A stretch of 32,000 nt of DNA, taken from the NCBI GenBank assembly GCA_965250005.1, contig OZ252279.1, forward strand, positions 780,001 to 812,000, read 5' to 3'. Shown here one piece after another: positions 7,080-32,000 of this stretch. The notes beneath the pieces are model-generated. The model saw nothing but the letters and a program-made list of their open reading frames with translations, ran no database searches and was not told the DNA's origin. Position 1 is the stretch's first letter, and every line of letters starts with the position of its first letter. The stretch is from Demequinaceae bacterium (lineage in GTDB: Bacteria > Actinomycetota > Actinomycetes > Actinomycetales > Demequinaceae). Position numbers and translations under genes: made by a program.

Positions 7080-7101
7080 CGGCGCCGCCTAAACTGACCT
7101 G

Positions 7102-9013: not shown

Positions 9014-9026
9014 CCCGAGGTTTGGC

Positions 9027-13181: not shown

Positions 13182-13276
13182 GCCTCCTCCCCCAGCGCGC
13201 TCCCGCGCCTCATGACGGTGCGCACGCTGCCGCTTCCTGCGAGGCGATCTCCGATGTGTGTCACAGACGTCTCCCG

Positions 13277-14494: not shown

Positions 14495-14605
14495 GGGGCG
14501 CCTGCAAGATAGGTGTTCACCGTTCCATTGTCGATGGTGCGGGGGCAAGGGATCAAACTCGCGCCCGACGCGGCCAAGGGAACCGCGGAGAGTTGAAGGC
14601 GAGAT

Positions 14606-15952
14606 CTACGCGCGCGCGAGCTCGGAAGCCGCGAACGCGCCCACCGCATCGCTGATCGCCTCAAGCTCCCTCGCCCCGTGCGCGAGCGACACGAACCACG
14701 CCTCGTACGCGGACGGCGGGGGCAGCACCCCTGCACTTTCGAGGACCGCAAACAGCCGCGCGTAGGCCGCGACATCTTGCTGCGACGCCTCCGCGAAGTT
14801 GCGCGGCGCCTGCTCGAGTCCCAGGAAGAACGAGAACAGCGTGCCTGCCGCCCCAACGGAGTGAGTGACGCCCGCGCTTGCTAGCGCGTCCTCGACGGCC
14901 ACGGTGGTTAGCGCGGCCGAACGCGCCAGGTTCGCGTACGCGTCATCGTCGAGCGCCTCGAGCGTTGCAATCCCTGCCGCAACGGCAACGGGGTTGCCCG
15001 ACAGGGTCCCCGCTTGGTACACATCGCCAGCGGGCGCGAGCCGCTCCATGAGTTCCCCACGGCCGGCGACTGCCGCGACAGGGAGCCCCCCTCCAATAAC
15101 CTTCCCGAACGTCACGAGGTCGGGCACCCACGGCTGCTCGCCGTCTCGCACTGCGGCGTCGCGCTCGATCCCCCACCACCCGGCACTTCCTGCACGGAAT
15201 CCAGTCAGCACCTCATCAAGAATGAAGACGGCTCCGGCGTGGGCGCACAGCGACGCGAGCTCGGCGTTTAACCGGGGTTCCGGAGCAATCACGCCCATGT
15301 TCGCGGGCGCCGCCTCTGTAATCACTGCGGCAATCTCGCCTCCGCGGTCGGCAAACAGAGCGCGCGCCACTTCGATGTTGTTGTACGGAAGGACGACGGT
15401 GAGATGAGCGACCGCTTCTGGCACGCCAGCGCTTTCGGGGATTCCCGCAGTCGCAAGCCCCGACCCGGCAGCAACTAACAGCCCGTCGCTGTGCCCGTGG
15501 TAGCACCCCGCGAACTTGACGATCAGGTCGCGGCCCGTCGCTGCGCGCGCGATCCGCAACGCCGTCATGGTCGCCTCGGTGCCCGTCGACACCAGGCGGA
15601 CGCGCTCGGCCGGGGGGTAACGGCGCCGAATTTCCTCAGCGAGCTCCACCTCCGCCTGCGTGGTCGCGCCAAAACTCAGTCCTCGCCCGGCCGCCTCACG
15701 CACGGCTTCGACCACCGCAGGGTGCGCGTGGCCGAGGATCGCGGTTCCCCACGAACCGACGAGGTCGACATACTCGCGACCCTCCGCACTCGTGACGCGC
15801 GAGCCGTTCGCCGACGCGATCGCCACGGGGGTTCCGCCCACGGCCGCCCAGGCCCGCACGGGTGAGTTCACACCGCCCGGCAACACGCCACTCGCGCGCG
15901 CGAAGGAGTCTGCGCGGCCGCCTGCGCTCACCTGGTATCTTCGCGAATCCAT
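14606..15952 (-). CDS. hemL: Glutamate-1-semialdehyde 2,1-aminomutase
   Basis: 448 aa with ...GGVNSPVRAW... and a class-III aminotransferase-like sequence throughout. Confidence 0.95.
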   Translation of the reverse strand: MDSRRYQVSAGGRADSFARASGVLPGGVNSPVRAWAAVGGTPVAIASANGSRVTSAEGREYVDLVGSWGTAILGHAHPAVVEAVREAAGRGLSFGATTQAEVELAEEIRRRYPPAERVRLVSTGTEATMTALRIARAATGRDLIVKFAGCYHGHSDGLLVAAGSGLATAGIPESAGVPEAVAHLTVVLPYNNIEVARALFADRGGEIAAVITEAAPANMGVIAPEPRLNAELASLCAHAGAVFILDEVLTGFRAGSAGWWGIERDAAVRDGEQPWVPDLVTFGKVIGGGLPVAAVAGRGELMERLAPAGDVYQAGTLSGNPVAVAAGIATLEALDDDAYANLARSAALTTVAVEDALASAGVTHSVGAAGTLFSFFLGLEQAPRNFAEASQQDVAAYARLFAVLESAGVLPPPSAYEAWFVSLAHGARELEAISDAVGAFAASELARA

Positions 15953-16938
15953 GTGGCAAGGTCCAACGCCGCGTACGAGACAACGATGTCCGCGCCCGCC
16001 CGCGCCATCGATGTGAATGCCTCCAAGTGCGCCGCGCGGCGGTCAAGCCACCCGCGAGTTGCCGCAGCCTCGATCGAGGCGTACTCCCCCGAGACGTGAT
16101 AGGCGGCCACCGGTACGTCGGACTCGGCCGCGACTTCTGCAAGCACGTCTAGATAGGGCAGCGCAGGCTTCACCATGACGATGTCCGCGCCCTCCTCTAG
16201 GTCGAGGGTGACTTCGCGCATGGCCTCGCGCCCGTTGGCTGGGTCCATCTGGTAGCCAAGCCTGTGGCCTTCCAGCGGCGATTCGACAGCATCGCGGAAG
16301 GGCCCGTAGAACGCTGACGCGTACTTGGCGGCGTACGCCAGCAGTGCCGTGTCGTGGTGGCCGGCGGACTCGAGCGCGTCGCGTACGGCGGCCACTTGGC
16401 CGTCCATCATTCCGCTGAGCCCAAGAATGTCGGCGCCCGCCTCCGCGAGCACCTCTGCCATTTTTCGGTAGACAGCTAGCGTGGCGTCGTTGTCCACGTT
16501 CCCCGCGGAGTCCACAACGCCGCAGTGTCCGTGGTCGGTGAATCCATCCATGCAGAGGTCGGCCATCACTACGAGCTGGCCGCCGGCGGCCGTTTTGGCG
16601 CGGCTGACCGCGAGCGAGAGTATCCCTTCGGGATCGCACGCCGCGCTCCCCTCCGCATCCCGAGTTTCCGGGACCGCATACAGCAAGACCCCGCCTACCC
16701 GCATCGCCGCGGCCCGCTCGACCTCGCCGACGAGAGACTCGAGCGTGTGCTGGTGGACTCCTGGAAGCGAGTCGATCGGATGTGGGGCGTCCAGGCCCTC
16801 GCGGACAAAGATTGGTAGGACCAGATCCGCTGCATGCAGACGAGTCTCGGACACCAGCCTGCGCATGGAGGCCGTCGCCCGGAGCCTGCGCGGGCGAACC
16901 ATCGGTGTGTCCCCATCGCGGTGTTCGTCAGTACCCAT
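15928..16938 (-). CDS. hemB: Porphobilinogen synthase (delta-aminolevulinate dehydratase)
   Basis: 336 aa from ATG 16938 (MGTDEHRDGDTPMVRPRRLRATASMRRLVSETRL...), typical of HemB. The start shares 1 nt with the hemD stop (TGATG). Confidence 0.94.
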   Translation of the reverse strand: MGTDEHRDGDTPMVRPRRLRATASMRRLVSETRLHAADLVLPIFVREGLDAPHPIDSLPGVHQHTLESLVGEVERAAAMRVGGVLLYAVPETRDAEGSAACDPEGILSLAVSRAKTAAGGQLVVMADLCMDGFTDHGHCGVVDSAGNVDNDATLAVYRKMAEVLAEAGADILGLSGMMDGQVAAVRDALESAGHHDTALLAYAAKYASAFYGPFRDAVESPLEGHRLGYQMDPANGREAMREVTLDLEEGADIVMVKPALPYLDVLAEVAAESDVPVAAYHVSGEYASIEAAATRGWLDRRAAHLEAFTSMARAGADIVVSYAALDLATWIREDTR

Positions 16939-17753
16939 CACGATTCCTCCTCGATCATTCCCAGGCAATCTGCCAGCGCCTGGACCATTGCCTCGTACGT
17001 CGGGTTCTCTGCAACGGCATCCACCGTGAGTCCGCAGGCAGTCGCGCCCGCGACGGTATTCTCGCCGATCGCTACCACCATCGTGCCACTTGCCATGTCT
17101 GGACAGTCACGACGCAGTCGCTCGGCCGCCGACGCCGACGTCAGCAGCACCGCATCAACGGCCCCCGATGCGAGAGCGTGCACCACCTCAGCGTCTGGTC
17201 CCTGGCCGTCCACCGTCCGGTATGCCTCGACCGTGACGACTTCCCAGCCGAGCGCCTCAAGTCCACGGGCCAGGGTGTCAGCAGCAAGGCTTCCGAGCGG
17301 CGCTAGGACTCGGCTCGCCGCCCCGCTCACCCCGACAATTGGCGCAGGGAACACCTCAACAAGCCCGCGCGCCGATTGATCAGATTCCGGGACAAGGCTC
17401 ACCTCGAGATCGAGCGCGCGGCATGCCCCAAGCGTCGACTCGCCCACCGTGGCAACGCGTGCATCTGGCTGCGGGTCAGCGAGCGATATGCCCGCGCGCG
17501 CCGCTGCGTCCGCCAGCGCGCCCACGGCGTTCCGGCTGGTGACAGCGAGCCAAGCAAACTCGTGCGCGCACCACCGCGCGGCTGCCGAGTCGAGCGCGCC
17601 CAGCGTCATTGGAGGCTCGATCGAGATGAATTCGACAGCGTCCACGCGCGCGCCCAGCGCGTCAAGCTTGTCAGCGAGCGCCCGGCGCCCGGGTGTCACG
17701 GGCACGAGCACCCTGCGGCCACTCAAGTTGGGTTGAGCCTGGCGCGCCGTCAC
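16938..17753 (-). CDS. hemD: Uroporphyrinogen-III synthase
   Basis: 271 aa HemD-like sequence in the canonical hemC-hemD-hemB position. The GTG start overlaps the hemC stop (GTGA). Confidence 0.8.
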   Translation of the reverse strand: MTARQAQPNLSGRRVLVPVTPGRRALADKLDALGARVDAVEFISIEPPMTLGALDSAAARWCAHEFAWLAVTSRNAVGALADAAARAGISLADPQPDARVATVGESTLGACRALDLEVSLVPESDQSARGLVEVFPAPIVGVSGAASRVLAPLGSLAADTLARGLEALGWEVVTVEAYRTVDGQGPDAEVVHALASGAVDAVLLTSASAAERLRRDCPDMASGTMVVAIGENTVAGATACGLTVDAVAENPTYEAMVQALADCLGMIEEES

Positions 17754-18670
17754 GCGCCACTCACGAGGCGCGCGGCGCCGCGACCCAGCAGTGAGCGCCC
17801 CGCATCGCTACCGAGCGCCACCGCCTCTGACGCGGGACCGGACGAGTAGTCGTTGATGGCGAGCGCCCCGTCGATGCTGAGCGCTCTGACGTGCAATGAG
17901 AGCATGCCATCCGCAACAGTCGCGTATGCGCCCACGGGCGACGAGCAACCCGCCTCAAGCACTCCCAATGCCGTACGTTCCGCGAGCGTCGCCACACGTG
18001 TGTCGGGATCGTCGAGACTAGCCACGAGCGAGCGGAGCTCATCCGGCGCGTCGGCGCGAATCTCGACCGCGAGCGCGCCCTGGCCGGGTGCGGGCACCAT
18101 CACCTCGGTTTCCATTACCTCGGCAATCGCGTCGGTCTGGCCCAGCCGGTCGAGGCCTGCCATCGCGAGCACAATGGCGTCGAAGTCGCCGTTTTCAAAT
18201 TTGGACAAGCGAGTGTCGATGTTTCCGCGCAGCCCCTCGACGTGGACGTCGGGGCGCTGGGCGAGAATTTGCGCCGCGCGACGAGGAGCGCTAGTACCCA
18301 CGCGCGCGCCAGCAGGGAGTTCCGCGAGGACGAGGCCCGCGCTGCACAGGGCATCGCGAGCATCCGCGCGCGCAGGAATCGCGGCAATCTCGAGATCCGC
18401 GTGCTGGTCGACCGGCATGTCCTTGAGCGAGTGCACGATCAAGTCGCACTCGCCTGATATGAGCGCGACGCGCAGGGCGGCGACAAACACGCCCGACTTG
18501 TCGGAGCCGGAAATGGGGCCCTTGATCTTGTCGCCCTCGGTCGTGACGGGCTGAAGGTCAATGTCGAGCTCTTCGCCCCGCTTCGCGGCAATGGCGCTCA
18601 ATTGGCTCACAATCAACCCAGATTGAGTGCGCGCGAGCGAACTTGCCCGCGTTCCAAGCCGAAGTTTCAT
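17750..18670 (-). CDS. hemC: Hydroxymethylbilane synthase (porphobilinogen deaminase)
   Basis: 306 aa (MKLRLGTRASSLARTQSGLIV...), colinear with HemC. Confidence 0.95.
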   Translation of the reverse strand: MKLRLGTRASSLARTQSGLIVSQLSAIAAKRGEELDIDLQPVTTEGDKIKGPISGSDKSGVFVAALRVALISGECDLIVHSLKDMPVDQHADLEIAAIPARADARDALCSAGLVLAELPAGARVGTSAPRRAAQILAQRPDVHVEGLRGNIDTRLSKFENGDFDAIVLAMAGLDRLGQTDAIAEVMETEVMVPAPGQGALAVEIRADAPDELRSLVASLDDPDTRVATLAERTALGVLEAGCSSPVGAYATVADGMLSLHVRALSIDGALAINDYSSGPASEAVALGSDAGRSLLGRGAARLVSGA

Positions 18671-18777
18671 GCCCTTAGCGTGCCACAGGCCGCCTCACGC
18701 GCCGCACCGCCCGCGGCGCCTCCGCGGGGCTGCGGGTCGCGAGGGCAGGCCCTCGCCCCGCGCGGCAACGTAGCTCG

Positions 18778-19140
18778 CTAGCCCGCTTCCGCAGAGAGCA
18801 GGATGTCGACCTCAACGATCGCGCTCGGTTCAACCACCGCGAAGCCCAAGTTCGGCGCGGTGAGGTCATAGTCCGTGTAGTCGATCTCTATGGTGCCAAC
18901 GACCCGTATCTGGCTACCCTCGCGCTATGCCTCGATACGCGCCGACTCGTCCAGCGAAACGCCGTGGAGCACCATGCTCCCGAGCACGTCAACGGAGATG
19001 GGGCCGTCGTCTAGGTCCGTGATATCCAGCTCAGACGTGAACGTGAAAAGCGCGTCGGGAAAGTCCGCCAGTTCGAGGTGACCGCGAAAGAAGGCATCCC
19101 GCGACTCGTTGCCCGTCTTGACAGTCGCTAGGTCGATGCC
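18778..19140 (-). pseudogene. YceI-family lipid/polyisoprenoid-binding protein remnant (N-terminally truncated, internal TAG)
   Basis: My minus-strand translation reads ...GIDLATVKTGNESRDAFFRGHLELADFPDALFTFTSELDITDLDDGPISVDVLGSMVLHGVSLDESARIEA*REGSQIRVVGTIEIDYTDYDLTAPNLGFAVVEPSAIVEVDILLSAEAG*. It aligns by eye to the YceI C-terminal two-thirds. There is an in-frame TAG at 18925-18927, a further stop upstream, and no start or signal peptide. Confidence 0.55.
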
Positions 19141-19213
19141 TGCTTGCTCGTGGCAAGCCGGAGGGCGCGCGCATCGCTACGGCAAGGTCGCAGTTTCTTG
19201 AACTCGGCCGGAG

Positions 19214-19816
19214 CTATCTGCTGCCGCGCCGCTTGGTGATGATTTTGCTGAACACGAATCGCGCTACCACGAGCAAAAGGAATCCGGCGACAATGCGCAG
19301 TACCAACGTCGAGTCTCCCGCGTCGACCTGAGCACTCGCGGCGGGCTCGCGCGAACCAGGCGCCCCCTCCGATGGTTCCGCATCGCCGGGTATCGCGTCT
19401 GCCGACGGGTCAGGCGAGTTAGCGGCTGCCGAGGGCTCGCCTGCCGCGCCTGCGACGGTGAATTCGAGCGCACCGTCGATCGGATGCCCGTCGGCCGAAA
19501 CCACGCGCCAGGTGACAACGTACGGTCCGTCGCCAAGGTCCTCCACCGGCGTCACCGCGAGTCCGCCGCTGCGTATCTCTACAGGAGCGGCGGCGCGGTC
19601 GATGCCGTCGGCGTCGACAATCGCAACTGACGCGCCAATGTCGAGAAGCTCTCCTGAAAACGTCAAAGTAACTTCCGTGAGCTCGGCGACGGTCGCCCCC
19701 TGCGTTGGGGTGGACGCGACGAACCCGGTATGCGCGAACGCCGCCGAGCCGGATCCAAATGCGACACCGAGCCCAAGCGCAATTGCCGTCAGCACTTTGA
19801 TCTTGCCTACCGTCAT
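19214..19816 (-). CDS. copC: CopC-domain copper-binding protein with signal peptide and C-terminal membrane anchor
   Basis: 200 aa. The signal peptide ends ...SAAFA/HTGF, giving a mature N-terminal His. The CopC core is GPYVVTWRVVSADGHPIDGALEFTV, followed by a Pro/Ala/Glu/Ser linker and then the TM helix LVLRIVAGFLLLVVARFVF. Confidence 0.8.
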   Translation of the reverse strand: MTVGKIKVLTAIALGLGVAFGSGSAAFAHTGFVASTPTQGATVAELTEVTLTFSGELLDIGASVAIVDADGIDRAAAPVEIRSGGLAVTPVEDLGDGPYVVTWRVVSADGHPIDGALEFTVAGAAGEPSAAANSPDPSADAIPGDAEPSEGAPGSREPAASAQVDAGDSTLVLRIVAGFLLLVVARFVFSKIITKRRGSR

Positions 19817-21080: not shown

Positions 21081-22213
21081 TGCGGATCGCGCACGTCGCC
21101 AACTTCTACGGCCCTACGTCAGGGGGCCTTCGCACCGCGATCCATGCTCTCGGCAGCGGCTACTCCCAGCGGGGCCACGAGTTTCTCATGATCGTCCCGG
21201 GCGTCGTCGACTCGGACAAGCAGACCGAATTCGGCCGCCGCGTGACGGTGCGCGCACCCGTGATTCCGTTCACCGGCGGGTACCGCGTGATCCTGCGCAT
21301 CCGGCGCGTGCGCGCGGTGCTCACCCAGTTCGATCCGCACCGGCTGGAAGTATCAGATCGGACCACCTTGCACGGACTTGGCGGCTGGGCGGCCAAGCGA
21401 GGGCTGCGATCGACCTTCTTCAGCCACGAGCGCGCCGACGGGATCCTCCGCGCGAACATCCCGCGATGGCTTCACGTGACTGTCCCCATCACCTGGCTTG
21501 TGAATGTTCACAATCGAGGGACGGCAAAGAGGTTTAGTACGGTCGTGTGCACCACGGGGTACGCGGCCGTGGAGTTCGACCGCCTGCACCTGCCGTCGGC
21601 GCGCGTGCCGCTCGGCGTGGACCTCGAAGCGTTCAATCCCGAGCGTTTCGACGCGCGCGTACGGGAGCGCTACGCCGCAGAAGGCGAGGCGCTCGTGGTG
21701 ATGGCGAGCAGACTGTCGAAGGAAAAGAGGCCCGGCCTGGCCATCGAGGCGGTGCGCAAACTTGCCGACGAGGGTGTCGCGATCCGACTCGTGAGCGCGG
21801 GAACGGGCGCAATCGCCCGGCAGGTCGAAAGCGATGCTCGCGGCGCTCCCGTGACGTTCCTCGGCTTCGTGGACGGGCGCGGTGACTACGCGGCCCTACT
21901 GGCATCGGCCGATGTGCTCGTAGCGCCGGGGCCCATCGAGACCTTCGGACTTGCGGCGCTCGAAGCGCTCGCTTCGGGCACGCCCGCCGTCGTGAATTCT
22001 CAGAGCGCACTCCCCGAGGTGGTCGGTGACGCGGGGGCCATCGCCGCGCCCTCTGCCGCGGGTTTCACCGCCGGGCTCCGCGAGGTTCTGGCGCGAGATC
22101 CAGTGGAGCGTCGAGCTGCGGCACGGACGCGTGCCGAGCAGTTTCCGTGGAGCGCCACGGTCGAGCGCATGCTCGCGATCTACGGTTCCGACGACCACCG
22201 GCCCGGCGAGTAG
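21080..22213 (+). CDS. GT4-family glycosyltransferase (second of a pair)
   Basis: 377 aa (MRIAHVANFYGPTSGGLRTAI...) with the E-x7-E region IETFGLAALEALASGTP. The start overlaps the previous stop (TAATG). Confidence 0.75.
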   Translation: MRIAHVANFYGPTSGGLRTAIHALGSGYSQRGHEFLMIVPGVVDSDKQTEFGRRVTVRAPVIPFTGGYRVILRIRRVRAVLTQFDPHRLEVSDRTTLHGLGGWAAKRGLRSTFFSHERADGILRANIPRWLHVTVPITWLVNVHNRGTAKRFSTVVCTTGYAAVEFDRLHLPSARVPLGVDLEAFNPERFDARVRERYAAEGEALVVMASRLSKEKRPGLAIEAVRKLADEGVAIRLVSAGTGAIARQVESDARGAPVTFLGFVDGRGDYAALLASADVLVAPGPIETFGLAALEALASGTPAVVNSQSALPEVVGDAGAIAAPSAAGFTAGLREVLARDPVERRAAARTRAEQFPWSATVERMLAIYGSDDHRPGE

Positions 22214-22222
22214 TCGCGGGCG

Positions 22223-24169
22223 CTAAGCCCCGATGTAGCAGTAGTAGACGATCCCGAACGCGATCCACGGCAAGAGCAGCCACGGTGCGATGAAGCACCA
22301 CATCTGCCACGACGTTCGCCGGATGCGCCAGAACCACCAGGCGAGGAACGCGATGCCCACTACGGGCAGCACCCACCACCAGCCGGGTCCGACCCACCAC
22401 CACCACACAAACACCCAAGCGATGGTGGCGCCAAAGGCAACCCACATCCACGACCGCCACCATGGGCGGCGCAGCGCGTGCGCGTACAGGTAGAGCCCGA
22501 CCCACGGCAGCCAGAAGACGCCCAAGAAGATCGCGCTCCACCACATCGACCAGGCCGGGACAGCACTCTGCCACTGCAGGGCGAGGATGACGACGACAAC
22601 CTGAACGCCCGCCCAAATCGCCGCGGCGCGCCTGAACCACGGGCGCCACCAGCTCGGCTGGTGAGTTGCGGCCCAATCGACCAACAGCCACAGCGCAACA
22701 ATCCACGGTATGAGCAGCCCCCACGACCATCCCCACCCGCTGACGAGCGTGAAAACGAACGTGAATAGCCACACGGGGATCCAGAAGAATATGAGGAGGA
22801 ACCACAGCGTCCACCAACTCCACCACGAGGCCGTGCTCCACCACACGCGCACGATGCCGACCTCGACGAGTACGAAGAGAGCGACGAGCAGCCAGCACCA
22901 CCACAAGTCCCAGAAGAGGTTTCCCCAAATCAGCCACGGCAACCACAACCAGGGAAGGAAGAACAGCAGCGTGGACCGCGAGGCGGCCCAACCACCTGCG
23001 TTGGCCCGCCAGAACCACCACAGAACAGCGACGCCGAAAACTGGCAGCAACCACGCCCACAGGTGCCACGTGGCCCACACGAATACCCCCGCGCCCACGA
23101 CGGCGAACGCCTGCCACGCCCAGGTGCGCCACCACGGCAGGCGGCTCGCGACGAAGCGCGCATAGAACAGCGCCGGCACCAGCCAGAAAACTGTGAGCAG
23201 CAAGCCCGCGGTCAGCCACCAACTGGTTGACCCCCAAATGAGGAGCGCGATCGCTGCCGCTGTCCACGCGCCGAGCGCCAGCCACAGCGAACTGGGCTTG
23301 GGCCCCGCCCGCCTCAGCGAGAGGACCCACGGCAGCGGCACCAAGAAGGCAAACGGCACCCACCACCAGCCCGGCATGGCAACACCGGCACCAGTGATCC
23401 CGTACGTGAAGCCGTAGACGAGGAAGGGCACCCACACGAGGTGCAGGATTGCCCCCCAGAGCGACCAGCGCCACCACGACGCGGTCCGCCACCACACGAC
23501 AACCGCGCACAGGAAGACGAAGACGATGAAGAGCTTGAGGCCCCAGCACCACCAGCAGGTCGTGCTCGACGAGGTGCCACCTGATTCCGTTGCTTCGTCG
23601 GCCGCGGAGGTGGTCCCCGGCTCGCTAGTGGTCTCGGGCTCGGAGGTGGTTTCGGGCTCGGCAACGGTCTCGGGCTCCGAGGGAGTCTCCGCGCCCGGCG
23701 CAGAGCGCGGTACGCCTAAACCGTCGAATATGCAGATCGATACTGGCAATCCGGTCGCCATCGAGAAGGCGATGACCTCGATGGTGTCGCTTTCGACCAA
23801 GCTCGTCAGGCGGTCCGGCGGCATCTCTATCGAACAACCTGTGGCGTCTCGACACTGAGTACCGGAATCTTCGGCGTAGCCCCCGTGTACCGCCTGCCCG
23901 TTGACAAAGACTTCGATCTGCAGCGGGAGGAGGGCGCGGACATCGACCGTGTTGCTCGCCAGGATGATTTCTACCTGCTGGCCGATTGGCAACTCACTTG
24001 TGAGTTCGCCGGTTTCCCAGTTGTAAAACTCCCAGGTGAAGTCGTCGGTCGCCGGGTCTGTGAGGGTGCTGGCGTGAGCTGCGCCGGAGAACAACAGCGG
24101 CGCGGCGACGGCAACGAGCGCGGCGAGCAGCCATCTTCGAAGTGTCGTCAGGCGCGTGGTCTTCAGCAC
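22223..24169 (-). CDS. Extremely Trp-rich secreted/polytopic membrane protein of unknown family
   Basis: A 666-codon uninterrupted frame (22223..24223). GTG 24169 is preferred as the start because GGGGAGGG (24177-24184) lies 7 nt upstream. The product has a Sec signal peptide (RRWLLAALVAVAAPLLFSGAAHA/ST), a soluble domain of ~125 aa, an acidic P/T/E/S linker, then ~444 aa of hydrophobic helices separated by Arg-rich loops. Third positions are GC-rich in this frame. Confidence 0.75.
   Translation of the reverse strand: MLKTTRLTTLRRWLLAALVAVAAPLLFSGAAHASTLTDPATDDFTWEFYNWETGELTSELPIGQQVEIILASNTVDVRALLPLQIEVFVNGQAVHGGYAEDSGTQCRDATGCSIEMPPDRLTSLVESDTIEVIAFSMATGLPVSICIFDGLGVPRSAPGAETPSEPETVAEPETTSEPETTSEPGTTSAADEATESGGTSSSTTCWWCWGLKLFIVFVFLCAVVVWWRTASWWRWSLWGAILHLVWVPFLVYGFTYGITGAGVAMPGWWWVPFAFLVPLPWVLSLRRAGPKPSSLWLALGAWTAAAIALLIWGSTSWWLTAGLLLTVFWLVPALFYARFVASRLPWWRTWAWQAFAVVGAGVFVWATWHLWAWLLPVFGVAVLWWFWRANAGGWAASRSTLLFFLPWLWLPWLIWGNLFWDLWWCWLLVALFVLVEVGIVRVWWSTASWWSWWTLWFLLIFFWIPVWLFTFVFTLVSGWGWSWGLLIPWIVALWLLVDWAATHQPSWWRPWFRRAAAIWAGVQVVVVILALQWQSAVPAWSMWWSAIFLGVFWLPWVGLYLYAHALRRPWWRSWMWVAFGATIAWVFVWWWWVGPGWWWVLPVVGIAFLAWWFWRIRRTSWQMWCFIAPWLLLPWIAFGIVYYCYIGA
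23612..23683 (-). repeat. Four imperfect 18-bp tandem repeats encoding the EPET(T/V)(S/A) linker of the Trp-rich protein
   Basis: The plus-strand units are ggtccccggctcgctagt / ggtctcgggctcggaggt / ggtttcgggctcggcaac / ggtctcgggctccgaggg. On the minus strand they translate to ...PSEPETVAEPETTSEPETTSEPGTT.... Confidence 0.6.
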
Positions 24170-24309
24170 GTTGCTACCCTCCCCAGGTTCGCAAGCCTTA
24201 GTTAACCGTAGGACCGCGGCCATGTCTAGAGTGAGATCGTCCTGCGCGCCAATGGCGGACGGAAGGAGAACGGGTTCATCGACTTGGTCAGGGTTCTAAA
24301 GAGCCCGTC
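24170..24309. promoter_or_regulatory. Divergent intergenic region between the Trp-rich protein gene and the HTH gene (promoters not resolved)
   Basis: A 140-bp spacer between oppositely oriented starts. The only element I can point to is the SD GGGGAGGG at 24177-24184 for the minus-strand gene. Confidence 0.3.
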
Positions 24310-24750
24310 ATGGTGGACCTCTCTGAAGCTGACTCGAACAAATGGAACAAGCTTGTGGCCCACCTCTCGAAACCTCAGGCTACCCCTGTCGTGGAGGGAG
24401 GCGTCGCGCTCGCGGCTCAGCCTGGTTCGAAACAGATCCAACGACGTTTCACCGAAGCGGAAGAACTCCTGGTAATCGCCGACTACAAGGCGGGCGGCAC
24501 CGTCTACTCTCTCGCGGCCAAGCACGGATGCCACCGCACGACGATCAGTCGCATATTGAGGTCGAGCAAGATTCGGCTCGCAAATTCACCGACCGACCCT
24601 GCCACAGTCGATGAAATCGTTCGACTTTACGAATCGGGGCTCTCAATGAGCAAGGTTGCTCAACGGGTAGGCGTCTCCGCGAAGACTGTTCTCAACGTGT
24701 TGCGCAAGCGACGGATACCAACACGGGATGCACATGGCCGCAAACGCTAA
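24310..24750 (+). CDS. Small DNA-binding protein with two tandem helix-turn-helix units
   Basis: 146 aa. Unit 1 is LLVIADYKAGGTVYSLAAKHGCHRTTISRILRSS and unit 2 is IVRLYESGLSMSKVAQRVGVSAKTVLNVLRKRR, followed by a basic tail. Many A/T-ending codons make it atypical for this window. The RBS is weak. Confidence 0.6.
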   Translation: MVDLSEADSNKWNKLVAHLSKPQATPVVEGGVALAAQPGSKQIQRRFTEAEELLVIADYKAGGTVYSLAAKHGCHRTTISRILRSSKIRLANSPTDPATVDEIVRLYESGLSMSKVAQRVGVSAKTVLNVLRKRRIPTRDAHGRKR

Positions 24751-25239
24751 CGAGAGTCTCGTACGCAGTCGGCGGGGCTGGTCAGCCGGTACTGGATCGC
24801 TTTCTTGAGCTGTGTGAGGCGAGTGTTTCTTCAGGACGGCCAATTGAATTTGTGTGAGTGCGTTCAGGGGTCACTGGATGCCTCGGGTTAGCCGTGCCAG
24901 TTGCGGCCCAGGCATATAGGTCTCGCTAAATATGGCGTTCTACTGAGGCGTCGATATGAATTGCAGTCCGACACCTGAACCTTGTTCGACGCGTTCGGGG
25001 CCACCTGAGTTGTCCACAGAAGCCTGATAGTCGCGGCGTTTGGGTTGTGGCATTGGTCACGGATTGAAGCGTTTCGGGGCCCCAAAGTAAGCGCATATGG
25101 CGCAAAATGGTGCAAACCTGCGTGCCCATTCAATCGAGTGTTTTGATTTCAACAAGACAAATTTGGTGATCTCTGCCATGTTCTTGTCAACACTTTCACT
25201 CGAGTTACCTGGGCTAACGCCCGTCCCTGAAGGGGATAC
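24751..25239 (+). promoter_or_regulatory. AT-richer 5' region of the rhs gene (promoter not resolved) with SD AGGGGA at 25231-25236
   Basis: GC is visibly lower here than elsewhere in the window (about 45-55 % in stretches I counted). -35-like hexamers are present (TTGATT 25144, TTGTCA 25185) but have no convincing -10 partner. An in-frame TGA at 25228-25230 fixes ATG 25240 as the first possible start. Confidence 0.3.
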
Positions 25240-28200
25240 ATGCACACCGTCGCGCGCTCAATCCTGACCGCAATGCTTACCGCCGCGCTCGCCATTGGCG
25301 TCGTCACCCCGGTCTACGCCGTAGACGACTCACTCCTCCTTGAGGGCGAGTCCACCACCATCGCTCTGCCCGATGGCGGCGAGGCCGACTTCAACGTGGT
25401 TGACCAGGCTACGGACGGCGCGAGTGTCGAGGCCGAGCCAATCGCCGTTGAGGGCGCGACCGCGGAGACCATCGATGGAGACGTGTTCGCCTTAAGCGAC
25501 GGCGTCTCGATTGTCGCCACCGACGCTGCGGGCGAGGACATCTCAGATTTCGAGCACGACGTGACGATTGTCGAGGCCACCGAGGACACCCCGGCTTACG
25601 TCTCTGAGTTCATCCCCGCGATCGAGCTGACATTCCCCATCTCAGAAGAGCAGCTCGCTGAGGTCGACGTCGCGTCGCTCGGCGTGTACTCACGCGAATC
25701 CGAGGACGACGAGTGGCAATGGGTGCCCTCGGCGTACGACGCCGAGCTCGGTGCCGTCGTGGCGCAGTCCGACCACCTGAGCGAGTTCACGGTCATGGCG
25801 GCCCCGGCCGCAGTCGCGCCGGACCCGACCGTGCCGCGCATTGCGCTCGACCCGGACGACGCGCTGGGCAAGGCCCTCTGGAACGGCACCGTCTACAACG
25901 AGCTTCAGTTCAGCCACGCTGTCGCAACCGCCGTCAAGGCCAGGCTCGAGAACGAATGCTTGGCAGAAGTCCTCATCACCCGCAATTCCTCGACGGCATT
26001 TGTTGCGCGGACCACTCGCTCAAACCGCATCCGGAACTTCGACGCGGATATCGCGATGACCCTCGCATTCAATAACTACAACACCGCGTCAGACGGCATC
26101 GCCCGCCCGTGGGGTATCAGCAGGGACGGCGGAGTGGTCGCGTGGTCCGCGAGCAACAGCGCGAGCACCCGGCTGGGTAACAACACCAAGACTCAGATTG
26201 TGAACTGGACGGGGCGCCCCGACCGCCGCGGGCTCAACCCTCCAAGTTCGGTGTTGCCTTACAGCCAGCTCGTCGGGTCGGCCCCGGCGTACGCACACGC
26301 AGAACTCCTGTTCCTCAGCCACAACTACGACTGGCCGATTATCAGCACGCGGCTTGATTTGGTGACCGACGCTGTGTACTCCAGCATCATTCAGCAAATC
26401 GAAGCAACGGGCGGGATCGCCTGCGCCGAGCCCGTGACGCTGCCGACGCCGCCCACGCAAGACGTGCTCGACGATCTCGCTCAGCTGGGCCAGAACAACT
26501 ACCAGATTTACGGCACGGACCCGGTCAACCTCGCGACAGGGAACTTCCTCGCCTCAGAAGAGGTGTTCACCCTCTCTGGCGTCGGCGACCAGGTCATCGA
26601 CCTGACCCTCGCCTACAACGCGCTCGACGGCCGCGTTTCACCGGTTGGCAACGGTTGGAACTTCGGGTATTCGTCCCGGGCGCAGTTGTATGACAACGGC
26701 GCTGTCATGGCGATCCTCGCGGACGGTCGCAGCGTGTACTTCGAGTCCGACGGCGCCGGCGGCTTTGCAACGCCCGCGGGTGCGCGCAGCACCCTTGCCG
26801 CAGTCGAGGGCGGAGCCGTGCTGACCTTTGCCGACAATACGTCGCTTGAGTTCACGTTCGATGAGGAGTCTGGGTATGGAACGTTGGCCCGCGCGGTGGA
26901 CCGCCAGGGCAACGCGTACACGCTGGTTTATGGACCGCTCGCGGAGGCCGCGGAGGGCGGGTACACGTTCCCGCCGTTGCAGAGCATCACGGACCAGGCT
27001 GGCCAGACGGTCGCGGTCCAGTCCACCCCCGAGGGTCGCATCACCGGATTCACGCATCCGGATGGCCGTCAGTGGACCCTCGCCTACGACGCCGCGGGCA
27101 ACCTGACGTCCATCTCGGATGGCGCGAACCGCACCCGCTCCTTCGCGTACAACGCGGGCGGTCTGCTTGAGGTTGTCACCGGAGCCGACGGCGTGGCCGA
27201 GCTAACCAACGTGTTCGACACCGAGCAGCGTGTGGTCATCCAGACTGATGGTGCGGGCTACATCCGCACCATTGCCTACGGCCCTAACCGTGAAACCACG
27301 CTCACCGATGCCCTAGGCAACGCGAGCACGCTGAGCCACAACGACAAGAACCAGGTGGTCCGGGCCCTCGACGCCGAGGGCGGTGTGACGCTTAACGGTT
27401 ACGACGACAACTACAACCCGAACACGTCGACTGACGCGAACGGCAACGTCTTCACATCGGAATTCGACGTCTACGGTCGCGTGAAGTCGTCCACCAACGC
27501 TCTGGGCGAGACCACCACATATGGTTACAACCCCCGCGGCGACCTGGTGTCCATCAGCAGCCCTGACCCGAACGGCGGCACCGCTACCACCAGTTTTGTC
27601 CTCAACGAGGACGGCCGCGCAACCGAGACTCACCTGCCGGACGGCACCGTCACGTATGCGTCCTTCGACGCGCACGGCGATATGACAAGCATCACGGATG
27701 CGACCGGCGGCGTGACCACTATGGCCTACGACTGGCGGGGAAACTCTGTCACCTCTACGGATGCGCTGGGCCACGTCACGGCACGTACGTACGACCTGGC
27801 GAACCGCCTCACGTCGGTCACCGACGCGAAGGGCGCCCTGACCACTCTTGCGTACGACGCTGCCGATAACCTGATCAGCACCCTCGACGCCCTCGGCGGC
27901 GTCGCCACGTTTGTTTATGACGTCAACGACTCGCTCGTGAGTGAAACTAACGAGGCTGGCGAAACAGCAACCTACGAATACAACGTCAACCTCCAGCTCA
28001 CCGCAGCGAACCGCGCCGACGGCTCACGCATCGAATATTTGTACGACGCGGAGCACCGCATGGTCGCGCAGACCAACCCGGACGGCACGCGCCGCACGTG
28101 GGAGTACGACGGCCTGGGCCGCGCCACCGTCATGGTGGACGAGGCAGGCGCACGCTGGCTCACGGAGTACGACGCGATCGGCAACCCCGTCGCTTCCATC

Positions 28201-31200
28201 GACCCGAGCGGTGCGCGCAGCGAGGTTGGCTACGACGCGCTGTCGCGCCCGGTGACGTTCACGGACGCACTCGGCAATGCCGACACTGTCACGTACCTGC
28301 CTGGCGGTGTCGCTGGCACCGAAACGGATGCGCTCGGGCGCACCTCGAGTTACGGCTACGACGTCATGGGCCGCCTGCTGTCCGTGACCACGCCGGATGG
28401 CGAGACGCGCGCTTACAGCTACGACGCGAACGGCCGGCTGGTGTCGGCCACCAACGCCCGCGGCTTCACGCAGACGTATCAGCTGGACGCGCTCGGTCGC
28501 GAGGTGTCAATGACGGACGCGCTCGGCAACCTGTGGCGCGCGGAACTCGACGCACTCGGCAACGTGACCGCGACCGTCGACCCGCTCGGCAGCCGCACCC
28601 AGATGGAATACGACGCCCTGTCGCGCCCGGTCGCGACCAAGGACGCACTCGGTGGACGTGCGAGCGTCGCCTATGACGCCGTTGGACGTGCAACGTCGGT
28701 GACCAACCAGAATGGCAACTCGATCAGTTACCAGTACGACGCACTCGGCCGCCCCACGCGCACCACGTACCCCGAGGGCTTGTTCACGACCACCGGCTAT
28801 AACGCCCGGGGTTTGGCCGTAGCGGTGGTGGGCACACGCGGTTTTCCGACCGCCTACGAGTACGACGCCCGCGGCATGCAAACGGCGATGGTGGACGAGG
28901 CCGGCGAACGCTGGCTCACCGAGTACGACTCGCGCGGCAACGTCGTCGCGAACATCGACCCCTCCGGCGGGCGGACCGAGTTTGACTACGACGCGCTCTC
29001 GCGCCGGGTCGCCTCGACGGACCAAGTGGGCGCGCTCACCTCGTTCGTCTACGACGCCGTGGGACAGATGACGTCTTCGACCGACGCGTTGGGAAACCCC
29101 ACGGCATACGTGTTTGACGCGATGGGGCGGGTGGCCGCGGCCACGACCGCCGACGGCGCCACCGTTGTGTACGGCTACGACGCCGACGGTAACCTGACGT
29201 CCTTCATCAACCAGCGCGGGTTTACGGAGACGTTCCAGCTCGACGCGCTCGACCGCATGGTGTCGCGCACCGACACCCTGGGCGGCACCTGGACCACGGA
29301 GTTCGACACCCGGGGCAACGCGACTGCCACGGTGGACCCGCTGGGCAACCGGACCGAGTCCACGTACGATGCGCTGTCGCGCGTAGTTGGCGTGACGGAC
29401 GCGCTCGCCGGTGAGGCGACCTTCACGTACGACGCCCTCGGCGCCCGCACGTCCACCACGAACGCGCTGGGCCAGACCACGGCCATCGAGTACGACACGC
29501 TGGGCCGCCCGGTCGCGTCGACGTTCGCGGACGGCACCACCGTGAGCAACGCTTACGACGCCGCCGGCCTGGTGGTCAGCTCGACCGATCAGCGCGGGAA
29601 CGCGATGTCCTACGAGTACGACGCGCGCGGGCTCAACGTCGCGAGCGTGGACACCGCGGGCCAGCGCTGGCTGACCGAGTACGACTCGCGCGGCAACGCC
29701 ACCGCGACGGTGGACCCCCTTAGCGCGCGGTCAACCGCTGAGTACGACGCGGCCTCGCGCCCCGTCGCCGTTGTCGACGCTGTCGGTGCACGGACCACGT
29801 TCGCGTACGACGCGCTCGGGCAGGTGGTCTCCACGACCAACGCCCTGGGCGACACCACGGCGTACACCTACGACGCCATGCAGCGTATGGTCACCATGAC
29901 CACTCCCGAAGGCGCCACGAGCCAGTACGGCTACGACGCCAACGGAAACACCACCTCGATCACCAACGCGCTCGGCGATGTCCTTGCCACCGAATACGAC
30001 GCCGCAGGCCGCGCGATTGCTACGGTGCTCCCTGACGGCGGCCGTACTGAGACCGCGCGCGACGCCCTGGGACGCGAGATCGCCACCACCGACGCCCTGG
30101 GCAACACCACCAGCGTGACGTACGACGCTCTCGGCCGCGCGACCATCGTGGTTGACGCCGCCGGTTTCTCCACGACCGCAACCTACGACGCGGGCGGCAA
30201 CCGCCTGTCAACGACGGACGCCCGCGGCGGGATCACCGCGTTCGTGTACGACGTGATGAACAGGCTCGTGTCAACCACCAACGCCGAAGGCGAAACCCGC
30301 ACACAGTCCTACGACGCAGCGGGCAACGTCACGGATGGGGTCGACGCGCTGGGCGTGGCGACGCACTTCACATATGACGTGCGGAACCTGCTGACCGAGA
30401 CAATCGAGAACTACTTGCCGGCCGAGCCGTCGAGCGAGTCGGTCAACGTGACGACGTCGGTGAGCTACGACGCCCGCGGCGACGCGGTGGCGACCGTAGA
30501 CCCGCGCGGCAACGCCACGACGTATGTGCGCGACGCGCTTGGCCGCGTGGCGGCAGAAACGGACGCACTCGGCCAGACCAGCGTCGTCGGCTTCGACGCG
30601 CTTGGCCGCCCGTCCGTGGTGACCGCACCTGATGGCTCGGTGACGGCGACCACCTACTCGCCCGACGGCTACCCCGTTGAGATCGCGTTCCCCGATCAGA
30701 CCGTGACATCCGAATTCGACGCGCTGGGCAACCGAACGTCCATGACCGACGCGCTCGGAACGTCTTCCTGGACGTACGACTGGGCCTCACGGGTCACCGT
30801 CGCCGTGGACGCGCTAGGCCAGAAGAACACGAACCAATACGACCTCGCAGGCAACCAAACCCGCGTGACATATGATGACGGCCGCTCGCTGCTGCGCACG
30901 TTCGATGCACGCAACCTAGCCGTCACGCAGGCTGATGCTGACGACATCACATCCTTTGATTACGATCAGGCCGGTGCGCTGGTAGGTATTTCGCGCCCGT
31001 CGGGTGTGGAGACCGCCATCGACCGCGACCTACTAGGCCGGGTGACGGCGATTGTTCACACCGGTGAAGGCGTCGTGGGCAACACGCTTCCTAGTGGTGA
31101 GGTGAATCCGTCGTCGATGGCTCCGGGTAATGCGTATGGGCATTGCAAGGACAACGGGAATGGCCACCCGAACCAGCAGCCTGCGGGTTGTTCGACGCAA

Positions 31201-32000
31201 GCTCTGACGTTCGAGTACGAGTACGACGCGCGTGGTCTGGTGGATGAGCGGGAGCTGTCCACGGATGAGGCGACCACGCTCACGGATTACACGCATGATG
31301 CGCTTGGGCGTCTGACGGAGTCTGTCACCGGTGACTATGTGGCCACGTATGGGTGGGATGCGGCGTCGAACTTGGTGTTTGAGTCGGTGTCTGAGGATCT
31401 GTCGACGAACAAGAAGGGTGATGGGTACACGGTCACCTGGACCGTCAACGCGATCAACCAGCTCACGCAGTCGGTGATGGATCCGTCGGCGATGCCGGCG
31501 AACAAGACGGAAACGACGGCGTTCTCTTATGACGCGCGCGGCAACCGCACGCAGGCGTTGACGACCACGACGTCGGGCAACAAGACGCACACGGTCAGCG
31601 ACATCCAGTACTCGTATGACGGTCGCGATTTGGTCAGTTCTGTGACCGGTGGTGACACGGATGTGGCGTATGCGCGTGACGGCGTGGGCCGTGCTCTTGA
31701 GGTGTCCGAGGATGGTGACACCCGCACCCGCCTGTATGACGGGCTAGCGATCGTGCGTGATGGTGACACTCAGCTGACGCGCGGTCCGGGTGGTGCGGTG
31801 TTGTTTGAGGCCACGATGGTGACGTCGGGCAAGGGCAAGAAGGCGACGACCTCGATCCAGACGGTGGATGTGCTGGCGGACCTGCTGGGTTCGGCTGTCA
31901 CGACCGCCACGGATGGCGTGATTTCTGCGGACCTGGCGCTGTTTGGAGACTTTGGTGACCTACTGACAGACACCTCCCTGGACACCGTCACTGGGTTTAC
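25240..32000 (+). CDS. RHS/YD-repeat polymorphic-toxin protein, 3'-truncated by the window edge (>2,250 codons)
   Basis: Frame 1 is open from ATG 25240 to the window end by my manual translation. It is absent from the ORF track because it has no stop in the window. The signal peptide is MHTVARSILTAMLTAALAIGVVTPVYA/VDD. The RHS-entry motif is DPVNLATGNFLASEEVF...LTLAYNALDG. Dozens of ~21-aa YD repeats follow (xYxYDxxGRLxxxTDAxG). The late-core motifs RLYDGLAIVRDGD and VDVLADLLGSAV...LFGDFGD fall at 31.7-31.96 kb. Confidence 0.93.
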   Translation, partial: MHTVARSILTAMLTAALAIGVVTPVYAVDDSLLLEGESTTIALPDGGEADFNVVDQATDGASVEAEPIAVEGATAETIDGDVFALSDGVSIVATDAAGEDISDFEHDVTIVEATEDTPAYVSEFIPAIELTFPISEEQLAEVDVASLGVYSRESEDDEWQWVPSAYDAELGAVVAQSDHLSEFTVMAAPAAVAPDPTVPRIALDPDDALGKALWNGTVYNELQFSHAVATAVKARLENECLAEVLITRNSSTAFVARTTRSNRIRNFDADIAMTLAFNNYNTASDGIARPWGISRDGGVVAWSASNSASTRLGNNTKTQIVNWTGRPDRRGLNPPSSVLPYSQLVGSAPAYAHAELLFLSHNYDWPIISTRLDLVTDAVYSSIIQQIEATGGIACAEPVTLPTPPTQDVLDDLAQLGQNNYQIYGTDPVNLATGNFLASEEVFTLSGVGDQVIDLTLAYNALDGRVSPVGNGWNFGYSSRAQLYDNGAVMAILADGRSVYFESDGAGGFATPAGARSTLAAVEGGAVLTFADNTSLEFTFDEESGYGTLARAVDRQGNAYTLVYGPLAEAAEGGYTFPPLQSITDQAGQTVAVQSTPEGRITGFTHPDGRQWTLAYDAAGNLTSISDGANRTRSFAYNAGGLLEVVTGADGVAELTNVFDTEQRVVIQTDGAGYIRTIAYGPNRETTLTDALGNASTLSHNDKNQVVRALDAEGGVTLNGYDDNYNPNTSTDANGNVFTSEFDVYGRVKSSTNALGETTTYGYNPRGDLVSISSPDPNGGTATTSFVLNEDGRATETHLPDGTVTYASFDAHGDMTSITDATGGVTTMAYDWRGNSVTSTDALGHVTARTYDLANRLTSVTDAKGALTTLAYDAADNLISTLDALGGVATFVYDVNDSLVSETNEAGETATYEYNVNLQLTAANRADGSRIEYLYDAEHRMVAQTNPDGTRRTWEYDGLGRATVMVDEAGARWLTEYDAIGNPVASIDPSGARSEVGYDALSRPVTFTDALGNADTVTYLPGGVAGTETDALGRTSSYGYDVMGRLLSVTTPDGETRAYSYDANGRLVSATNARGFTQTYQLDALGREVSMTDALGNLWRAELDALGNVTATVDPLGSRTQMEYDALSRPVATKDALGGRASVAYDAVGRATSVTNQNGNSISYQYDALGRPTRTTYPEGLFTTTGYNARGLAVAVVGTRGFPTAYEYDARGMQTAMVDEAGERWLTEYDSRGNVVANIDPSGGRTEFDYDALSRRVASTDQVGALTSFVYDAVGQMTSSTDALGNPTAYVFDAMGRVAAATTADGATVVYGYDADGNLTSFINQRGFTETFQLDALDRMVSRTDTLGGTWTTEFDTRGNATATVDPLGNRTESTYDALSRVVGVTDALAGEATFTYDALGARTSTTNALGQTTAIEYDTLGRPVASTFADGTTVSNAYDAAGLVVSSTDQRGNAMSYEYDARGLNVASVDTAGQRWLTEYDSRGNATATVDPLSARSTAEYDAASRPVAVVDAVGARTTFAYDALGQVVSTTNALGDTTAYTYDAMQRMVTMTTPEGATSQYGYDANGNTTSITNALGDVLATEYDAAGRAIATVLPDGGRTETARDALGREIATTDALGNTTSVTYDALGRATIVVDAAGFSTTATYDAGGNRLSTTDARGGITAFVYDVMNRLVSTTNAEGETRTQSYDAAGNVTDGVDALGVATHFTYDVRNLLTETIENYLPAEPSSESVNVTTSVSYDARGDAVATVDPRGNATTYVRDALGRVAAETDALGQTSVVGFDALGRPSVVTAPDGSVTATTYSPDGYPVEIAFPDQTVTSEFDALGNRTSMTDALGTSSWTYDWASRVTVAVDALGQKNTNQYDLAGNQTRVTYDDGRSLLRTFDARNLAVTQADADDITSFDYDQAGALVGISRPSGVETAIDRDLLGRVTAIVHTGEGVVGNTLPSGEVNPSSMAPGNAYGHCKDNGNGHPNQQPAGCSTQALTFEYEYDARGLVDERELSTDEATTLTDYTHDALGRLTESVTGDYVATYGWDAASNLVFESVSEDLSTNKKGDGYTVTWTVNAINQLTQSVMDPSAMPANKTETTAFSYDARGNRTQALTTTTSGNKTHTVSDIQYSYDGRDLVSSVTGGDTDVAYARDGVGRALEVSEDGDTRTRLYDGLAIVRDGDTQLTRGPGGAVLFEATMVTSGKGKKATTSIQTVDVLADLLGSAVTTATDGVISADLALFGDFGDLLTDTSLDTVTGF
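28135..30402 (+). repeat. Higher-order 756-nt (252-aa, ~12 YD units) tandem super-repeat inside the rhs ORF, 3 copies
   Basis: The signature VD(E/T)AG(A/E/Q)RWLTEYD(A/S)(I/R)GN starts at 28135, 28891 and 29647, exactly 756 nt apart. Copies 1 and 2 are colinear along their length (e.g. ARGFTQTYQLDALGREVSMTDALGN vs QRGFTETFQLDALDRMVSRTDTLGG). Copy 3 is more diverged in its second half. Confidence 0.7.

Follow-up and report, generated by a model that had tools for sequence, protein, structure and literature searches.

Locus and features of the gene

The window analyzed here is a 32,000-nucleotide stretch of contig OZ252279.1 (assembly GCA_965250005.1, Demequinaceae bacterium). Its minus strand carries, at 22223-24169, a gene for an integral membrane protein extremely rich in tryptophan (Trp, W), which is called the query below. 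The Trp-rich gene converges on two GT4 glycosyltransferase genes, with the stop codons 9 bp apart. On its other side it is divergent from a gene with a double helix-turn-helix (HTH) motif, which is followed by a dip in GC content and then by a giant RHS gene. The following features were assigned to the query gene, with protein positions given in amino acids (aa) and the basis of each assignment in parentheses:

22223-24169, minus strand: whole coding sequence of the Trp-rich membrane protein, 648 aa plus stop (open reading frame [ORF] list, recount, GC content at third codon positions [GC3], start context)
24177-24184, minus strand: Shine-Dalgarno-like GGGGAGGG, 7 nt upstream of GTG 24169 (read from the sequence)
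24071-24169, minus strand: predicted signal peptide, aa 1-33, MLKTTRLTTLRRWLLAALVAVAAPLLFSGAAHA with cleavage before S (basic n-region, hydrophobic core, site between AHA and S)
23705-24070, minus strand: extracytoplasmic N-domain, aa 34-155, with conserved LP and C-R-D-A-T-G-C-S (CX5C) (homologous domains in relatives)
23558-23704, minus strand: acidic Thr/Pro/Glu/Ser linker, aa 156-204 (T-rich equivalents in all family members)
23605-23682, minus strand: 18-nt tandem repeat, 4.3 copies, encoding EPETTS units (within the linker)
22907-23557, minus strand: Trp-rich repeat 1, aa 205-421, eight transmembrane (TM) helices, 37 W (repeat alignment, AlphaFold2 [AF2] helices, family alignment)
23546-23557, minus strand: CWWC (CxxC) at the outer end of TM helix 1, aa 205-208 (alignments A4/A5 and Cys table)
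22226-22906, minus strand: Trp-rich repeat 2, aa 422-648, eight TM helices, 47 W, starting with LWWCW and ending with YYCYIGA (repeat alignment, AF2)

The frame appears in the ORF list as 22223..24223 on the minus strand and, counted from GTG 24169, encodes 648 aa. An in-frame ATG at 24223 is the less likely alternative start; in homologues, the distance from the start to the signal peptide was comparable to that of the query when counted from GTG 24169.

An exact recount found 87 W among the 648 aa of the query (13.4%). Of the 444 aa in the membrane part, from CWWCW at aa 205 to the C-terminus, 84 were W (18.9%), which agrees exactly with the hand count of ~84 (~19%) in the initial annotation. 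That annotation had been made from the letters alone, and the other details it quoted were likewise found in place: the Trp runs and Arg-rich loops (VWWWWVGPGWWWV, GWWWVPF, CWWCW, SWWSWW, RRPWWRSW, and WFWRIRRTSW), the Shine-Dalgarno sequence before GTG 24169, the GC-rich third codon positions, and the signal peptide, Cys-containing soluble domain, and acidic P/T/E/S linker. GC content at codon positions 1, 2, and 3 of the query ORF was 0.55, 0.56, and 0.835, respectively. Base composition does not explain the Trp excess, as had been argued, because the other 17 genes of the window pooled to 1.36% W (range 0-3.8%, with the maximum in NarI). Nowhere in the window was the AT skew of the plus strand stronger than between 22001 and 24000 (0.43 at 22-23 kb, then 0.24). 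The skew arises because 87 CCA triplets lie antisense to TGG, so that amino acid composition drives the nucleotide skew.

A selectively maintained gene

The ORF at 22223-24169 is a genuine gene, kept by selection, for an integral membrane protein. Ratios of nonsynonymous to synonymous substitution rates (dN/dS) were calculated by the Nei-Gojobori method over the Trp-rich domain, using the family members for which DNA exists. They were 0.08-0.09 in close pairs (loci L020/L021/L022 and L026/L025) and 0.15-0.31 in more distant pairs. The closest DNA relative of the query was a fragment at a contig end, locus L029 (protein P0004). Over 160 aligned codons the two had no indel, shared the same end point, and kept 31 of 32 Trp, with a dN/dS of 0.33. 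Across homologues, a query W was matched by W in 62% of alignment cells on average, against 25% identity at other residues, and in 47 columns of the alignment at least 80% of the 13 family members had W. Strong purifying selection has kept the Trp residues at their individual positions, so they do something specific.

A chance open frame in GC-rich DNA, the one reading under which there would be no gene, has next to no probability. Long spurious ORFs are common in high-GC DNA, and a 495-aa antisense ORF overlaps the same region. The query frame, however, had a GC3 of 0.835, homologues conserved W at the aligned positions with the low dN/dS values given above (0.08-0.33), and the family kept its domain architecture. 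Judged by the sequence comparisons, purifying selection and the existence of homologues already refute the non-gene reading, and the initial view of the frame as a real gene held.

Two long ORFs in other frames or on the other strand overlap the gene, at 22065-23552 (minus) and 22665-23165 (plus); one is of 495 aa and one has high GC3. The 495-aa antisense ORF (22065-23552) had no homologue support and was dismissed as an artefact that GC-rich DNA produces on the antisense strand. The plus-strand ORF at 22665-23165, for which homologue support was also absent, was judged a GC-rich artefact.

A very rare actinobacterial family

The query belongs to an actinobacterial family that is very rare but conserved and for which neither described protein families nor solved structures gave a match. 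Roughly 15 billion proteins contained about 40 relatives in total, two of which came from a word-indexed search covering 5.8 billion. An exhaustive phmmer search of 1.84 billion cluster representatives returned 31 matches, of which 13 carried the Trp-rich domain and the others the N-terminal soluble domain only; E-values of the query were 5.6e-52 to P0003, its best full-length relative, and 3.3e-37 to P0004. A profile built from the 13 membrane domains retrieved 14 proteins with E-values down to 1e-169. Loci could not be located with the first alignment (A1) because of its diversity. The metagenome scan yielded 13 loci, on contigs with GC contents of 0.61-0.70. The query-type motifs CW[WA]CWGLK and WD[PL]WWC[WF] were absent from 185,579 species-representative genomes and from viral contigs, a result that speaks to the query-type form only, as these patterns would miss Acidimicrobiia-type members.

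Query identity to the relatives was 28-41%, and 60-64% to the fragment P0004/L029. Every relative was annotated as "hypothetical protein," and none had a Pfam domain. The few with a taxonomic label came from metagenome-assembled genomes (MAGs) of Actinomycetota or Acidimicrobiia (MBI4885224.1, HY826_14335; MBI5157292.1, HZA58_04675). The membrane domain contained 17-23% W across family members. The query shares the features that define the family: CWWCW at aa 205 opens the membrane domain and LWWCW at aa 422 opens repeat 2; the tandem units are of 217 and 227 aa, with eight helices each and W contents of 17.1% and 20.7%; and its sequence is significantly similar to those of other members. A location between uvrA and uvrC, which is a feature of the Acidimicrobiia-type clade only, was not seen for the window copy.

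Some variants of the arrangement were observed. One contig (L027, 3-800 and 1997-4777) carried two Trp-rich paralogues near each other. Single-unit, eight-helix forms (P0044 and L024, 2-1060) ended in C-x-C-C and had no second unit.

Two eight-helix repeats with tryptophan at both membrane faces

The two units of the query could be aligned with one another and with either unit of every homologue. The membrane part is thus a tandem duplication of an eight-helix unit, with 16 TM helices in all. AF2 run on 30 aligned single units gave eight helices, with a predicted local distance difference test (pLDDT) score of 76 and a predicted template modelling (pTM) score of 0.60. Run on the whole 444-aa domain, AF2 gave 16-17 helices at low confidence (pLDDT 62). 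An even helix count, in agreement with 16, also follows from the soluble domain that comes after helix 16 in P0001, P0003, and P0042.

Aligned to itself with hhalign, the unit profile gave an off-diagonal match at a shift of ~58 aa (probability 94.6%, E = 6.6e-8), a score that compositional bias could have inflated. Two patterns recurred in the sequence: WW-[ILV]-P-L-L-A-W-F-P…W-A-R-x-R-x-W-W-x-P-W and F-W-L-P-W-V…R-x-R-R-Q-P-W-W-R-P-W-M-W. As the self-match agrees with these patterns, the eight-helix unit resolves into four two-helix hairpins of ~58 aa.

Lysine and arginine numbered 9.7 per unit in the loops after odd helices and 0.7 in those after even helices, a distribution that fits a topology with the N-terminus outside. 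Together with the eight helices modelled per repeat, this count bore out the initial description of a polytopic membrane protein behind a Sec signal peptide. No cytoplasmic domain was present in the protein. Within six positions of a helix end, 26% of residues were Trp, compared with 20% in loops and 10% in the middle of helices; the Trp are thus placed as an exaggerated aromatic belt at both bilayer faces. The inside loops carried combined Arg/Lys and Trp motifs (RxRxPWWRPW; RRPWWRxW). Invariant or near-invariant columns of the family alignment held W, P, C, R/K, L, and F only, and the alignment contained no conserved acidic, amide, His, Ser, or Thr residue within helices.

Conserved and coupled cysteines

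At the outer face, C1 and C4 (the CWWC at the start of helix 1) and C221 (the TM8/9 junction) were invariant in 24 sequences, and C440 (the end of helix 16) was present in 23 of the 24 (alignment numbering). Each conserved Cys was flanked by W. Near the inner leaflet, two further pairs varied in concert. The TM1/TM16 pair (columns 17/421) had both Cys in 18 sequences and neither in six. The TM8/TM9 pair (columns 198/234) had both in 20 and neither in four. Mixed states numbered zero of 24 for either pair. The inner pairs were lost in several separate lineages; the query was without the TM8/TM9 pair and kept the TM1/TM16 pair. This co-variation looks like that of physically coupled Cys, joined by a disulfide or a shared ligand. 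With such coupling, TM1, TM8, TM9, and TM16 would meet where the two units adjoin.

Outside domain and linker

The predicted Sec-type signal peptide of the query ends in SGAAHA, with STL following the cleavage site. In the N-domain of ~120 aa behind it, the LP and C-x5-C-S motifs were invariant. Homologues of this domain occurred on P0003, P0042, P0009, P0014, and P0017-P0031, and P0003 and P0042 combined it with the same overall architecture as the query. The domain also occurred on single-pass membrane proteins and, in C-terminal position, on large secreted or SLH-domain proteins. Neither the N-domain nor the outside domain of the Acidimicrobiia-type members had a Pfam or PDB relative, and a profile search of the 5.8-billion protein set with the N-domain returned nothing. 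Among family members the outside domains varied and were placed at either terminus, and the membrane domain was constant.

Two small proteins, P0009 (aa ~140-243) and P0014 (aa ~150-332), joined a CX5C N-domain of the query type to membrane tails of 31% and 24% Trp. The pair was carried by locus L034 (1423-2154), on a contig of lower GC content (0.54). The hhalign comparison of the repeat profile with the P0014 tail was not significant (E = 0.25), and homology of the tail is not claimed. Either the two are very divergent relatives, or the outside domain has been paired independently with a Trp-rich membrane module.

Genomic context

Genomic surroundings differed between the sub-families. Nine Acidimicrobiia-type loci (L015, L016, L018, L019, L021, L023, L026, L027, and L001) shared a same-strand array, coaE-uvrB-uvrA-(S-adenosylmethionine methyltransferase)-Trp-rich gene-uvrC-rapZ-yvcK-pgk-tpiA, in which the Trp-rich gene and uvrC were separated by ~10-110 bp or overlapped shortly. 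This placement may reflect a single inherited insertion into a stable housekeeping array. Elsewhere the neighbors were various: RES toxin, sortase, and LPXTG-like protein genes at P0003; MFS and ligase genes at P0042; a small MerR-type gene preceding the P0007 gene; an S8 peptidase gene adjoining P0008; and TetR and epimerase genes at L029. Beside P0003, L028 (12360-15802) held a sortase gene and genes for two surface proteins, one with an LPLTG-like sorting signal, with the RES-domain toxin gene upstream. BLAST revealed no shared partner or conserved regulator among the neighbors of different sub-families.

The neighbors in the window (GT4, HTH, and RHS genes) recurred beside none of the ~20 homologous loci examined. 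The best relatives of the GT4 neighbor were 49-50% identical (an Actinomycetota MAG, Nocardia, and Nocardioides), and none had a Trp-rich neighbor. A link to Rhs-mediated competition or to glycolipids, which the initial annotation had implied, therefore found no backing in a gene that is convergent with GT4, divergent from HTH and RHS, and without the same neighbors at any homologue.

Between the Trp-rich gene and the RHS gene, at 24226-26000, GC content fell to 0.59-0.62. A 146-aa protein encoded there (24310-24750) had two transposase/resolvase-type HTH motifs and a weak PADLOC match to "mad1" (E = 5e-6). The GC drop and the HTH gene may mark an island boundary. The RHS-repeat protein (25231-32000, plus strand) was of more than 2256 aa, with 29 RHS repeats and DUF6531, and extends past the end of the window, within which neither its toxin tip nor its immunity gene can be seen. 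Elsewhere in the window lay metabolic genes: narG, narH, and narI (respiratory nitrate reductase) followed by moaA, a mobA-like gene, moeA, and moeB/thiF (molybdenum cofactor) at 318-12511, where the ORF between narH and narI is presumably narJ; and CbiX/CysG-type sirohaem genes followed by hemL, hemB, hemD, and hemC (minus strand) and by a gene for a CopC-domain protein (19214-19816) at 12477-19816.

Candidate functions

The reading favored here, tentatively and at somewhat less than even probability, is that the Trp-rich domain forms a rigid, cysteine-stapled hairpin-repeat platform, locked in both lipid interfaces, that presents a surface binding domain. The two halves would be stapled by the Cys pairs at the TM1/TM8/TM9/TM16 interface, and Trp belts together with Arg-Trp cation-pi clusters would hold the platform in the lipid interface. 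A flexible tether, probably glycosylated, would then hold an interchangeable binding domain at the cell surface, and the protein would serve as a scaffold or anchor rather than as a transporter, acid-base enzyme, or signaling receptor. A classical form of any of these three is disfavored because the membrane domain is constant and the outside domains are interchangeable on Thr/Pro-rich tethers, and because the protein has no cytoplasmic domain and no conserved polar residue in the bilayer. Several considerations weigh against a platform. An anchor alone would hardly call for 16 helices and 84 copies of the costliest amino acid. Conservation is highest in the membrane domain, which may therefore be the seat of the key activity. 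The geometry of an invariant CxxC at the N-terminus of a helix is classically redox-active and not only that of a structural disulfide, and the vicinity of the cytoplasmic leaflet is an odd place for structural disulfides. In addition, the predicted model of the whole domain is weak.

Those cysteines are the basis of the chief rival, a minor but real possibility, in which the protein is a membrane thiol-disulfide oxidoreductase or a transmembrane electron conduit. The CWWC would be a redox-active CxxC positioned as in DsbB/VKOR, and the inner Cys pairs and the Trp lattice would carry electrons or holes through the bilayer or pass them to menaquinone. The protein would act on the tethered CX5C domain or on other exported proteins. 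In thioredoxin-fold and VKOR/DsbB enzymes, the redox-active CxxC is found at the N-terminus of a helix. The invariance of C1, C4, and C221, the near-invariance of C440 (23/24), the coupled pairs at the opposite leaflet, the W flanking the Cys, and the invariant Cys pair of the query-type N-domain all favor this reading. They are offset by the lack of sequence or fold similarity to DsbB, VKOR, DsbD, and CcdA, and by repeat 2, which has one motif Cys only (PWWC). Several lineages, moreover, dispense with inner pairs, as the query does with one; the outside domains of most members are without an obvious Cys pair; and no thioredoxin-like partner recurred in the loci examined. Taken more broadly, it is unlikely that the Trp lattice is photochemical or electron-transfer hardware, with ~80 Trp acting as a UV-B antenna or hole-hopping wire coupled to the Trp-flanked disulfides and with UV-B or redox input switching the protein. 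Still less probable is a specific tie to nucleotide excision repair, in which the protein would be a cofactor-free, UV-B-responsive Trp antenna whose excited Trp break adjacent disulfides (CWWCW, WWC, KWCW). Nine metagenomic loci from two sub-clades do place the gene inside uvrB-uvrA-(methyltransferase)-Trp-rich gene-uvrC-rapZ, the domain has 17-23% Trp with conserved Cys next to Trp, and Trp-mediated UV cleavage of neighboring disulfides has been documented in other proteins (PMC4682814, PMC4312030, PMC3207388). The window copy and P0003, P0042, P0007, P0008, and L029, however, lie away from uvr genes, the uvr context may be the one inherited insertion described above, and the protein has no output domain.

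The remaining readings draw on the general architecture and on the neighbors in the window. Like many transporters, the query has a membrane part of two homologous halves (16 TM helices in total), and two GT4 genes end 9 bp from its stop codon. It might be a transporter, a channel, or a lipid or glycolipid flippase working with the adjacent GT4 enzymes or in envelope assembly; Trp can stack on sugars. This is nevertheless improbable, given that the helices contain no conserved polar or charged residue and that transporter, GT-C, and flippase families gave no match. The GT4 genes are convergent, not co-transcribed, and not recurrent beside homologues, and the closest GT4-bearing genomes are without the Trp-rich gene. 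A role as an accessory gene of the neighboring Rhs toxin island (immunity protein, receptor, or export helper) is very improbable. The gene lies 1 kb from the giant RHS gene (25231 to 32000), the GC dip and the transposase-type double-HTH gene stand between them, and its distribution is sporadic. Yet it is divergent from and upstream of the RHS gene, whereas the place of Rhs immunity genes is behind the toxin tip; none of the ~20 homologous loci had an adjoining RHS gene, and PADLOC gave no match.

No residue is rarer or costlier than tryptophan, which is encoded by one codon only, and a conserved membrane domain with ~19% Trp lies far outside normal protein composition. As a natural test case, the family lends itself to the study of how proteins in bilayers are stabilized by Trp belts, by Arg-Trp cation-pi clusters, and by intramembrane Cys pairs. 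Were the redox or UV readings true, it would represent a new kind of cofactor-free electron or photon device.

Comparison with known families and systems

Searches of known families agreed with the initial statement that no family could be named for the protein. The query was unmatched in Pfam at E <= 10. In NCBIfam at E <= 10 there were only two sub-threshold matches, both to the linker and judged noise: RiPP_CPAC (E = 0.095) and S-layer glycoprotein (E = 0.16). PADLOC (E <= 0.01) returned no family for the query, P0033, or P0042. The best match of a sequence-profile search of the PDB (E = 0.16), to the Trp-rich single-helix protein NDUFB3, was judged compositional. Foldseek searches with the single-unit model gave best E-values of 1 in the PDB (TM-score at most 0.29) and 6 in BFVD, and no description of such a Trp-rich membrane protein was found in the literature.

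Several known systems invited comparison. Like the query, TspO/MBR, the "tryptophan-rich sensory protein" (PF03073), is a bacterial membrane protein rich in Trp, though a small one, with five helices, ~160 aa, and a Trp content far below that of the query. It lacks the repeats, the CxxC, and the outside domain of the 16-helix query, and it was rejected in the absence of a Pfam match at E <= 10 and of a fold match. DsbB (PF02600) and VKOR (PF07884) share with the query a CxxC at an extracytoplasmic TM-helix end and additional conserved outside Cys. They are four-helix bundles with a quinone site, whereas the CxxC of the query sits in a different architecture and its second repeat has a single Cys of the motif; no Pfam, NCBIfam, PDB-sequence, or fold match was obtained, and both were rejected. 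DsbD/CcdA (PF02683) was also rejected, with no Pfam match at E <= 10, no NCBIfam match, and a different Cys pattern, as were the transporter, GT-C, and O-antigen-ligase superfamilies, with no profile or fold match and with conserved columns restricted to W, P, C, R/K, L, and F. In UVR8, the plant UV-B photoreceptor, clustered Trp and neighboring Arg form the intrinsic chromophore. The query family resembles it in its abundant Trp-Arg motifs and in the many relatives inside a uvr gene array, but UVR8 is a soluble beta-propeller, not an all-helical membrane protein, and the two are not homologous. Indolicidin and tritrpticin are free, interface-seeking antimicrobial peptides of 13 residues, rich in Trp, Arg, and Pro. 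The query motifs RRPWWRSWMW and RLPWWRTWAW resemble them but are cytoplasmic-face loops of a 16-helix protein, and the likeness is one of chemistry, not of family. TspO, DsbB/VKOR, DsbD/CcdA, GT-C/ligase, and UVR8 are likewise analogies of chemistry only.

The family is undescribed, and its membrane architecture, of hairpin solenoid units stapled by cysteine pairs, is probably new. Its relatives, none of them characterized or named, mostly differ from the query in having another outside domain and a place between uvrA and uvrC. MBI4885224.1, MBI5157292.1, P0003, and P0042 share with the query a signal peptide or outside domain, a T-rich linker, the CWWCW start, and two Trp-rich eight-helix units of ~215 aa with the same conserved W, P, C, and R columns. 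A definable and nameable domain thereby now groups ~40 "hypothetical proteins."

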